From Escherichia coli (GTDB taxonomy: Bacteria > Pseudomonadota > Gammaproteobacteria > Enterobacterales > Enterobacteriaceae), in assembly GCF_050320075.1 (NCBI RefSeq), contig NZ_CP190018.1: a stretch of DNA of 64,000 nucleotides, one strand, 5' to 3'. Below are positions 27,001 through 30,000 of the stretch, in pieces; positions within the stretch are counted from its first letter, which is position 1, and every line of letters begins with the position of its first letter. Position numbers: made by a program.

Positions 27001-30000
27001 CTCGGGTCAGCTACCGAAAACAGTGGGCGCGCTGGCGGGTGATGATTCTGCCGGTATTGCTGATTCTGGTTGCGCTGGCAGTGGAACGGGGCGTGACGTT
27101 ATGGAGCATCAGCGAACAGGTGGCGCAAAGCCGCACCCAGGCGGAAAAAAAGTTCTTAACACTGTTCCCGGAGCAGAAGCGGATTGTGAATTTGCGTTCC
27201 CAGGTGACGATGGCGCTGAAAAAATATCGCCCGCAGGCCGACGATACCCGGCTGCTCGCAGAATTGTCAGCGATCGCCAGTACCCTGAAAACGGCGTCAC
27301 TTTCCGACATCGAAATGCGTGGTTTCACCTTTGATCAAAAACGCCAGACTCTTCACCTCCAGCTGCGGGCCGCGAACTTTGCCAGCTTCGACAAACTGCG
27401 TAGCGCACTGGCAACCGATTATGTTGTGCAACAGGACGCATTACAGAAAGAGGGTGATGCGGTTTCCGGCGGCGTAACGTTGCGGAGGAAATAACATGTT
27501 ACGCGATAAATTTATTCACTATTTTCAGCAATGGCGTGAACGCCAGTTAAGCCGTGGCGAACACTGGCTGGCACAACACCTGGTGGGGCGTTCGCCGCGT
27601 GAAAAGGGCATGTTACTGGCAGCGGTGGTGTTCCTGTTTAGCGCCGGATATTACGTCCTCATCTGGCAGCCTTTGAGCGAACGGATAGAACAACAGGAGA
27701 CGATGTTGCAGCAGCTGGTGGCGATGAACACCCGACTGAAGAACGCCGCGCCGGATATTATTGCAGCGCGAAAATCTGCCACAACAACGCCTGCGCAGGT
27801 ATCGCGGGTCATCAGTGACAGTGCTTCCGCGCACTCGGTGGTCATCAAGCGGATAGCCGAGCGTGGGGAGAATATTCAAGTCTGGATAGATCCGGTGGTG
27901 TTTAATGACCTGCTGAACTGGTTAAAAGCACTGGATGAAAAATATGCGCTGCGGGTGACACAAATTGATGTCAGTGCTGCTGAGAAGACTGGGATGGTGA
28001 ATGTGCAGCGGCTGGAGTTTGGGCGGGGGTAGGTATTAAAAACTATAAACATTAGTGATATTAAACGTATTATCAAGATTCATTAGCTATTACTTTAACC
28101 TTGATATGTTCCTTATTATATTAAAGTCAGAGTAAGTTGCATATATAAATGAATTATGAACCTACTGAGTAAATTTTTATAGATGTGATTAATAAAGGAA
28201 TATCGATAACCGATTAATATTACAACAATTTGATGAGGCTTACATGTCAAAAAGAATCAACAAATAATTATATCAGAAAAAGTTATATTATCTTATTGAA
28301 GGCCTCTTTAAAGAGGCCTTGCGTGGGCGAAGCGTTCTATGTAACAGTACATGCAACTGGGGTAACTTTTCTTTAAAGGGTATTTTTTCGAACGTGTATT
28401 AGGAAAAGTATTTACATAGAGTGATATTCAGGTTGTAATAAGTTACCTTTGTTACAGTTACGTGGTGTGTGTTTTGTGGTGGATTGTTGGCCTCCTGATT
28501 ATCGTTGTTGTGTTTGTTATCTTAGTGGTCAGGTCTCGTATGCAGGATATGGATGATGATTATTGATAAAAATGTTATCATAAAATTTATAGAGGTATTA
28601 TATTGAATAAGTAAAATATAATGTTGTATTGAACTTTTTACTATTTTTATTGTAAAAAGACCCGCTTTAATTTTATGCATTTTTGAGAGTCTGACCAAAT
28701 AATGGTGTTTTCAATATTCCTCTAGCGTCATATTGTTCAGTGATTTATGCGGGTGTTCACAGTTGTATTCTAGCAACCATTTTCCCTTGATTCCCCACAC
28801 TTCATTCAGTATTCTGGGCAGATGAAAATTGAGTGTTTCTGTACGGGATGTCCGGTTAAAACACTCAATGAAAGCGTACTGCGTCAGCTTACTTGGTTGG
28901 ATAAACATGCAGTAAAACTGGAGTTTATCCAGTTACAAAAAAAATAATGCGCATTATTAATAACACGCATTAAATATAGATTAATTCTTTAATTCTTTAA
29001 TTCTTTAATTCTTTAATTCTTTAATTCTTTAATTAATTCGCTATAACTTTTATAAATAATATCTAAAACCCTAATTAAATCATTTTTATACCTCAGGTTA
29101 TCAGGTTTTATAGAATATGCCTTTTTTAAGTATAGCTCAGAGGTTTTGTAGTCCTTAACTTTTTCAAAAATTAACCCTATATGATGGTATGCTGGAGCAT
29201 AATTTGGATCTTCGTTGATACAGCACTTATAATTATTGATGGCTTCATCAAATTTATTCACATGATTCAATGCTATTCCAAGTTCAAAATATGTATCGCG
29301 GTTTTTCGCTATTTTTACAGATCTTGTTAAAAACGGTAAGGCTGCTGCTGGTTTTTTTTGTCGAGTTAAAGCCATGCCATAATATAAATTATATAGTGGG
29401 TTTGTTATATTATTGTGTTTTACAGAATCAAGAACTTCAATGGCTTGGTCGTACTTTCTGTTTCTGATTAGTACATAGGCATTATAAATTTCATGTATGT
29501 TGTACTTTGAAAAATAATCTTTTCCTGAATATTCGCAATGAAATATCTTTGTTGCTTCGTTATCATTCTTTATCACAGTTTCAATAAATTTATCAATTTT
29601 AATAAAGTTCTCATGAATACTTTTTGTTACATTATGACCAGTGTTTTTTATTATTATGATGTGGATATTTTCTAATGTATATGGCAGTAACGATGCATTA
29701 TATAGATCGATTATGTCAAGCTCACCTGAAAATATATAAAACGTTGTGTCGGTGGCATTAGAAAACAAATTTGTTAAATCATGATATTTAACTTTAATGT
29801 CTTCGGGCATATGTAATTTACTTCGGCTAAAAGGGAGTTGTAAAACATATTCTGCCCCGAAACAAATTACATGTTTTGCTTTATTTTTAATTCCATATAA
29901 CGCTGCTCCCGTTCCTCCCATTGAACTACCAATATATATTGTATTTTTTTTCTTAGTAATGGATTTTATTGCGTCAACGCTATCTTCTAATGAAGAACCC

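Follow-up and report, generated by a model that had tools for sequence, protein, structure and literature searches.

In a 64,000-nucleotide stretch of Escherichia coli DNA (contig NZ_CP190018.1, RefSeq assembly GCF_050320075.1; hereafter the window), the AT-rich spacer between a type II secretion system (T2SS) operon and a capsule (kps) locus contains an open reading frame (ORF) of 30 codons. We consider it likely that this ORF is a real gene for a small membrane protein, that it came from a prophage, and that it now frames region 2 of the capsule locus. The family of its product is undescribed, and is new within known kinds, namely small single-pass membrane proteins and prophage accessory genes. 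An original prediction on this DNA had compared the product to small membrane proteins or type I toxins; the first part of that comparison stands, and the toxin reading was not supported by any test run. We hypothesize that the gene would encode a bitopic inner-membrane peptide in which a hydrophobic helix (residues ~2-19) is followed by R-S-R and a cytoplasmic acidic tail ending in D-x-D-D-D-Y. Its family is found for the most part in temperate phages of enterobacteria, at their tailspike end, with some copies outliving the decay of their prophage. The window gene, in turn, forms the conserved outer flank of the serotype-specific region 2 in a rare collinear kps locus, facing the capsule operon convergently as the prophage copies face the tailspike gene.

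The homologues carry most of this argument. The frame originally proposed was 34 residues long, initiated at GTG and located at 28462-28566 (+), with the translation MVCVLWWIVGLLIIVVVFVILVVRSRMQDMDDDY. Used as a query in an exhaustive phmmer search of 1.84 billion representative proteins (threshold E<1e-3), it returned six matches (E 3e-6 to 6e-4), five of them exactly 30 residues long and aligned to query residues 5-34. A profile search of 5.8 billion cluster representatives extended these to 42 proteins (E 6.6e-15 to 2.3e-6), again nearly all of 30 residues, with the consensus MWWvIGILAVvVLfvaLVIRS-l-D-DDDY. M1, D25, D27 and Y30 are invariant in the family, and G6, L8, V12, L17, R20, S21 and D29 nearly so. 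Read as 30 codons from TTG, the window protein carries every invariant residue, begins with M-W-W, and has its stop codon directly after Y30. Its identity to family members is 40-67%, and it shares with them length, M-W-W, G6, R20-S21 and the D-x-D-D-D-Y C terminus. When a nucleotide model was built from the homologue ORFs together with 260 nt upstream, the only nhmmer match in the window was 28475-28567 (E 1.7e-16), and DNA homology to the homologues is thus confined to the ORF. What the window copy and the family share beyond the protein is a convergent orientation on a variable cassette. The window copy differs from the prophage copies in having TTG in place of ATG and AT-rich codons, and in lacking the LexA box, GATC cluster and humD operon found upstream of them.

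The family is essentially nameless: the only labels found were one 'hypothetical protein' (ACUY4Q_003645, Phytobacter sp. AG2a) and one obvious misnomer. There is no Pfam, NCBIfam or PHROGs model for it, the window protein and six homologues gave nothing above noise in Pfam or NCBIfam, and the literature search did not find the family's peptide strings. A word-indexed protein search with a 48-residue extended query gave no match, nor did plasmids by tblastn or blastn. Under a strict pattern a single species-representative genome matched, that of Phytobacter massiliensis.

The same alignments place the start codon. The 34-residue frame is present as originally described, but its first codon is not the one proposed: as the homologues align to residues 5-34, the start is most likely TTG 28474. 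GTG 28462 was rejected as a start, being GGG in allele L008 and lying upstream of the point from which the homologues align; GTG 28465 is GTA in allele L003, whereas TTG 28474 is invariant. The homologues begin with ATG behind an AGGTG or GAGG Shine-Dalgarno (SD) sequence, and have AGGTGAatgtATG at the position that matches the window's in-frame leader. The earlier remark that a clear SD is missing therefore holds for the GTG start only, since a GGTG lies 6 nt before the TTG. That GGTG is the only SD-like sequence there, where homologues have AGGTGA or GAGG. The suspicion that the ORF might have arisen by chance was sound as far as length goes: the spacer contains five ORFs of at least 30 residues against 2.6 +/- 1.5 in shuffled sequence, so that ORFs this long are expected by chance and the mere existence of this one is no evidence of a gene. 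It is the homologues that show it is not a chance frame. Other ORFs of the spacer (28230-28376 on the plus strand, 28116-28250 and 28522-28698 on the minus strand) were rejected, as they are broken by indels or lie past the homology break in other alleles.

The proposed architecture of one transmembrane-like helix and an acidic tail was borne out at the level of prediction. AlphaFold, given the family alignment, returns a single helix over residues 3-28 (pLDDT 86.6), and mean Kyte-Doolittle hydropathy is +3.2 for residues 1-19 against -2.3 for the tail. The hydrophobic stretch is followed by R-S-R and then by a tail of net charge -3, which by the positive-inside rule would lie in the cytoplasm. 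We infer from these sequence features that the peptide is inserted in the membrane with its C terminus inside, and that translation begins at the TTG. The final residues of the window copy (25-30, window 28546-28563) read D-M-D-D-D-Y-COOH. The invariant tail, D-hydrophobic-D-D-D-aromatic-COOH, resembles the C-terminal tip of E. coli SSB, DFDDDIPF; by this likeness the tail could dock cytoplasmic partners at the membrane, and so link the SOS-controlled humD/dinI slot described below to a membrane function.

Selection has acted on the protein. Pairwise Nei-Gojobori comparisons across the family give pS of 0.5-0.8 and pN of 0.14-0.32 (dN/dS ~0.1-0.35); synonymous sites are near saturation and the protein is conserved, and the selection is therefore on the protein and not on the DNA. 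The frame is free of indels and stops in every related locus examined, so that the refuting condition set with the original prediction, a frame broken in orthologous regions, did not arise. Among capsule loci it is intact in all eight distinct K-locus alleles and in four metagenome copies (the metagenome scan yielded the same E. coli alleles only), although the spacer next to it has diverged by ~20% and has many indels. Some 30 other E. coli genomes carry 28033 to ~28569 with 80-84% identity to the window. They have different cassettes in region 2 (GT2/GT29/acyltransferase, HAD hydrolase, galE/GT4, polysialyltransferase-like and others), and in every case homology of the flank ends within a few bases past the TGA of the small ORF, with random identity beyond. 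Along this flank, identity to the window is ~0.81 at the left, 0.86-0.91 in a palindrome considered further below, 0.79 from there to a conserved upstream block, 0.87-0.91 in the 69 nt of that block, and 0.90-0.93 in the ORF. The ORF and the 70 nt before it are thus the stretch of the flank that is conserved best, and all indels among the K-locus alleles lie outside 28405-28566.

The upstream block, 28405-28473, is probably the 5' untranslated region (UTR) and/or promoter of the small gene. A promoter scan found no consensus sigma-70 site within it; by eye there is a TTTACA-17-TGTAAT arrangement (28411-28439) whose -10 hexamer lacks the A at position 2. A sigma-E-like GTAACTT...TCGAA, also picked out by eye, was discarded for wrong spacing and lack of conservation. 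The window copy could be transcribed from an unrecognised promoter in the 69-nt block or by read-through from the gsp operon. The flank is also seen away from gspM: in L004 (NZ_CP139339, 5287-6400) the capsule locus and the spacer from ~28182 onwards stand beside IS1 and IS3 copies and yehD fimbrial genes, and because of this placement the spacer, or most of it, appears to travel with the capsule locus. L001 and L002 have KpsM of identical accession (WP_032152072.1), with spacers that differ by 17-20% and unrelated region 2 cassettes; the shared KpsM suggests that cassettes were exchanged recently, by crossovers in kpsMT on one side and within or past the spacer on the other.

Most members of the family are located at one end of a prophage, some of these in E. 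coli, and the phages concerned include lambda-like (with gpJ), P22-like and Phytobacter phages. There the 30-residue gene converges on the 3' end of a tailspike or tail-fibre gene, often overlapping it by a few bases, and diverges from a gene for an 80-residue protein and a UmuD-like gene (HumD, S24 peptidase). A perfect LexA box, TACTGTATTTTTATACAGTA, lies in the divergent intergenic region, ~121 nt upstream of the ATG. By eye, a TATAAT or TATAAG on the strand of the small gene overlaps the right half of this box. Prophage copies also have a conserved GATC cluster upstream, GATCG-N7-CGATC-N14-16-GATCG, seen in L018 (7844-8000) and likewise in L017, L022-L024, L041 and L045-L047; its arrangement recalls the Dam/OxyR phase-variation switches such as gtr, agn43 and opvAB. 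In 20 complete E. coli genomes the prophage copies stand beside P22-like tailspikes, and RefSeq annotates none of the 20. Isolated GenBank phages gave no match to the family gene by tblastn or blastn (one search matched humD only), and eight contigs of IMG/VR do match it.

Stand-alone copies also occur. One adjoins sufA and retains vestiges of the prophage intergenic region; another lies between patD and the ydcY/ortT homologues. In L025 (GCA_001266615.1, 5786-7735) a stand-alone copy is clustered with further genes for very small membrane proteins, YdgV (29 residues) and an OrtT/GhoT-like toxin (57 residues), between patD and ydcY homologues. The spacer of the window, by comparison, holds no remnant of the prophage 80-residue or humD genes (best tblastn E 0.14; no upstream homology by nhmmer), no LexA box, taken as CTGT-N8-ACAG at a promoter, and no GATC cluster. 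A degenerate box at 28333-28352 (CTAT-N8-ACAT) was rejected on inspection, as it matches at 10 of 20 positions and both key G/C positions are changed.

The borders of homology differ between the two settings. K loci have the upstream block and the ORF in common and are unrelated downstream, the junction being the stop codon; several prophage pairs (for example L022/L023 and L018/L041) have the ORF and the tailspike 3' end in common and are unrelated upstream, the junction being the start codon. With breakpoints at the stop in one setting and at the start in the other, the ORF behaves as a module of its own.

A strongly hydrophobic peptide of 30 residues with a single predicted helix also brings to mind a type I toxin, or a membrane-damaging peptide induced by SOS like TisB or DinQ. 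Such a peptide would depolarise the inner membrane when made, and its translation would be limited by a structured 5' UTR, by a weak start codon and by antisense RNA transcribed from the operon that converges on it (the capsule operon or late phage genes). TisB and DinQ are LexA-controlled type I toxins of E. coli, of 29 and 27 residues. The small gene resembles them in size, in its one hydrophobic helix and, for the prophage paralogues, in the nearby LexA box, with its overlapping promoter-like hexamer, and a 5' leader of more than 100 nt. In the lambdoid phage HK140 (L039; NC_019710, 20079-21175), the SOS gene dinI fills the same slot between the tail fibre gene and the 79-residue-humD operon by attP, convergent with the former and divergent from the latter; DinI itself is different, an unrelated soluble protein of 88 residues. 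The convergent overlap of the tailspike gene with the ORF 3' end, the TTG start and weak SD of the window copy, and a 286-nt region that folds somewhat better than its shuffles (z -2.3) are also as such a toxin would have them. However, no candidate antitoxin RNA was found: no antisense partner resembling IstR or AgrB turned up, direct repeats of 10 nt or more that could yield a trans-encoded complementary sRNA are absent from the spacer, Rfam gave noise only, and the conserved block has no conserved minus-strand promoter, though convergent read-through might still supply an antisense RNA in cis. There is no sequence similarity to TisB or DinQ, none of the toxin families in Pfam or NCBIfam was matched (Hok, Ldr, Ibs, ShoB, TisB, DinQ, ZorO and others), and the window lacks a LexA box. 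An acidic DxDDDY tail is moreover atypical, since known type I toxins have ends that are basic or amphipathic. We therefore regard a toxin of this kind as unlikely; in the prophage copies, the LexA box and the dinI slot make an SOS toxin similar to TisB or DinQ a serious rival.

As to what a genuine membrane-protein gene of this kind might do, we tentatively propose an accessory 'moron' peptide whose transmembrane helix would dock on a membrane machine and whose acidic tail would act there, either in phage exclusion or in modulating the assembly or export of surface polysaccharide; this is a possibility more than an expectation. A further reading, which we find doubtful, is a portable effector that would travel with polysaccharide-specificity cassettes (the receptor-binding end of the tailspike in phages, region 2 in capsule loci) and act at the inner membrane on export, chain length or phage exclusion, its tail docking cytoplasmic partners.

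A rival reading is a polysaccharide-linked conversion or immunity peptide comparable to Iap of phage D3 or to Salmonella OpvA. Such a peptide would insert beside the polysaccharide assembly or export machine (Wzy/Wzz, or here KpsMT/KpsE), alter chain length or export, and so change susceptibility to phages that use polysaccharide receptors. Two unrelated settings of the gene adjoin a polysaccharide-specific cassette, the tailspike or depolymerase gene of prophages and E. coli capsule region 2, and in the prophage pairs above the ORF travels with the 3' end of the tailspike gene between phages that are unrelated in their upstream DNA. There are also precedents for small phage or island peptides that act on O-antigen polymerisation, in Iap (PMC4815439) and OpvA/OpvB (PMC4652898, PMC3350482). 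Iap of the Pseudomonas phage D3 is reported (PMC4815439, citing Taylor et al. 2013) as a very small inhibitor of alpha-polymerase, acting in the inner membrane on polysaccharide assembly and contributing to superinfection resistance. The likeness to Iap would be one of size and context, both being very small prophage accessory genes; Iap belongs to a Wzy/Wzz pathway, whereas the locus in the window depends on an ABC transporter (Kps). OpvA is a small inner-membrane peptide of the horizontally acquired, low-GC opvAB locus of Salmonella enterica, with effects on O-antigen chain length and phage resistance (PMC3350482, PMC4652898, PMC4856963). Here too the comparison would be one of context, the prophage paralogues of the small gene also having an upstream GATC cluster; OpvA works with the Wzz-like OpvB of the same operon, while the small gene stands alone and its window copy has no GATC cluster. 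The arguments for conversion come from neighbourhood only. The ORF stays the same in K-locus alleles whose region 2 cassettes are of at least four kinds, so that there is no link to specificity there, and stand-alone copies lie far from any polysaccharide genes. In sum, we think a conversion or immunity peptide unlikely.

Several observations count against a functional gene in the window, or against the role proposed for it. The start codon, TTG, is a rare one, its SD is partial, no promoter that convinces and is conserved was found, and expression and translation of the window copy are predicted from its DNA. The K-locus alleles taken by themselves have very few substitutions and dN/dS of 0.24-0.66, so that current selection on the window copy is weakly documented. 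The exact window protein does not occur in a collection of 15 billion proteins, and the gene has no RefSeq annotation in any E. coli genome examined. The functional proposal draws on gene neighbourhood only, and the stand-alone copies near sufA and patD show that a polysaccharide-specific neighbour is not needed.

Some of these same features (the start, the SD, the promoter and the few substitutions at that dN/dS) would suit an untranslated relic, in which the window copy is a recombination 'linker' for cassette exchange or hitch-hiking DNA, as would the mosaic junctions at both ORF borders and the insertion sequence remnant in the same spacer. Against this stand the frame kept intact in the eight K-locus alleles and four metagenome copies despite the divergence and indels nearby, and the signature of selection at the protein level, namely saturated synonymous sites with a conserved protein. 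Alternatively, 28405-28566 might act as a non-coding RNA, or in cis to regulate the gsp or capsule operons, with the ORF incidental, given that the 70 nt upstream are as conserved as the ORF and that the region is predicted to fold. Yet homologues in unrelated contexts share the ORF only, and their differences are concentrated at synonymous sites; RNAalifold found two compensatory pairs among 90 (covariation term -0.92 kcal/mol), and Rfam had no match. Because of the codon-level evidence both readings are disfavoured, and we consider the relic very unlikely and the RNA element extremely so.

If the ORF is the small membrane-protein gene we take it to be, it matters for annotation and for typing. 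Proteins this short are systematically missed by annotation pipelines, and this family nonetheless keeps its length and sequence both in prophages from several genera of enterobacteria and in a rare class of capsule loci of E. coli. In those loci the gene lies exactly at the outer edge of region 2, the part that is exchanged, and in phages at a mosaic joint by tailspike genes, and is thus useful for K-locus and prophage typing. Finally, if it is true that the gene affects capsule or phage susceptibility, it would be relevant to extraintestinal pathogenic lineages such as ST648.

Table 1. Features of the spacer between gspM and the capsule locus, in window coordinates.
Feature	Position	Strand	Remarks
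AT-rich conserved capsule-locus flank	28033..28569	.	From the gspM stop to just past the stop of the small gene; 537 bp
Perfect 22-bp palindrome	28299..28320	+	AAGGCCTCTTTAAAGAGGCCTT; forms an RNA hairpin
Indel-free conserved upstream block	28405..28473	+	From comparison of K-locus alleles
In-frame leader GTG GTG TGT GTT	28462..28473	+	Holds GTG 28462 and the SD-like GGTG (28464-28467)
30-codon gene and TGA stop	28474..28566	+	Predicted product MWWIVGLLIIVVVFVILVVRSRMQDMDDDY, TTG read as Met
IS3-family remnant	28648..28908	-	C-terminal integrase-core fragment (28711-28908, 65 residues) and 3' end of the element
Terminator-like hairpin followed by T run	28945..28972	-	From terminator scan; -11.8 kcal/mol, z-score -3.6

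The setting of the gene is itself unusual. The T2SS operon ends on the plus strand with gspM/yghD, whose stop is at 28032. From 29013 on, the minus strand carries two region 2 genes, for a TPR protein and a GT29-domain protein, and then kpsT, kpsM, kpsS, kpsC, kpsU, kpsD, kpsE and kpsF. By that gene order the locus is collinear, kpsFEDUCS-kpsMT-region 2 on the minus strand; all of its genes in the window (29013-43372) lie on this one strand. In the classical group 2 capsule layout, by contrast, kpsMT-region 2 converges on kpsFEDUCS. Of 5426 complete E. coli genomes, 36 have the kpsS-kpsM junction and 52 the spacer, and 22 complete genomes match the spacer at 100% identity, including a strain of ST648 (NZ_CP008697).

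The spacer is AT-rich and has no long ORF, as originally reported. Its GC content is 31-32% against 53-59% in gspL/gspM, with the fall exactly at the gspM stop codon, and low GC runs on through region 2 and kpsMT, which together with the spacer make up a single block at 29-36% GC. The earlier description of 28033-28710 as an AT-rich 'scar' is right about composition and wrong about unity, since the interval is a composite of the 537-bp flank, ~80 bp of locus-specific DNA and part of an IS3-family remnant. Its proposed right end does not hold either: ~28648-28710 belongs to that remnant, which runs to 28908. The remnant lies between the small gene and region 2 and carries the RefSeq label 'integrase core domain-containing protein'; IS3 transposase genes match positions 616-677 of the spacer query by blastn, and the fragment matches PHROG 157, a transposase.

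The 22-bp palindrome, also claimed originally, is perfect when read from the sequence. It lies 267 nt past gspM and 154 nt before the small gene, and AAGGCCTCTTTAAAGAGGCCTT is unique in the window; in 100 shuffled sequences nothing matched even when up to three mismatches were allowed. On the plus strand the stem reaches ~28292-28327, and other alleles have a longer, G-U-rich stem. The plus-strand fold is -18.5 kcal/mol in the window, -22.3 in L002 and -18.9 in L008. Overall the hairpin has a stem of 9-10 bp with four G-C pairs (-14.7 to -22.3 kcal/mol) and qualifies as a GC-rich stem-loop. One stem pair is G-C, G-U or A-U in different alleles, which suits an RNA read from the plus strand. There is no U tract 3' of the stem, where GCGUGGGCG follows on the plus strand and CAAUAAGAU on the minus strand; with none on either strand, the palindrome fails the test for an intrinsic (Rho-independent) terminator, and the terminator scan did not call it. 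With low confidence, we suggest that this conserved hairpin, an element separate from the small gene, serves to form or stabilise an RNA 3' end or to insulate that gene from the T2SS operon.

At the other end of the interval, the terminator-like hairpin of Table 1 is directly downstream of the last region 2 gene, that of the TPR protein (29013-30179, minus strand). An 8-bp tandem repeat of TTAATTCT, in ~7 copies over 28981-29036, overlaps the 3' end of the gene for the TPR protein, stop codon included. By eye the repeat has TAA in all frames, and changes in copy number should therefore alter only the last few residues of that protein.

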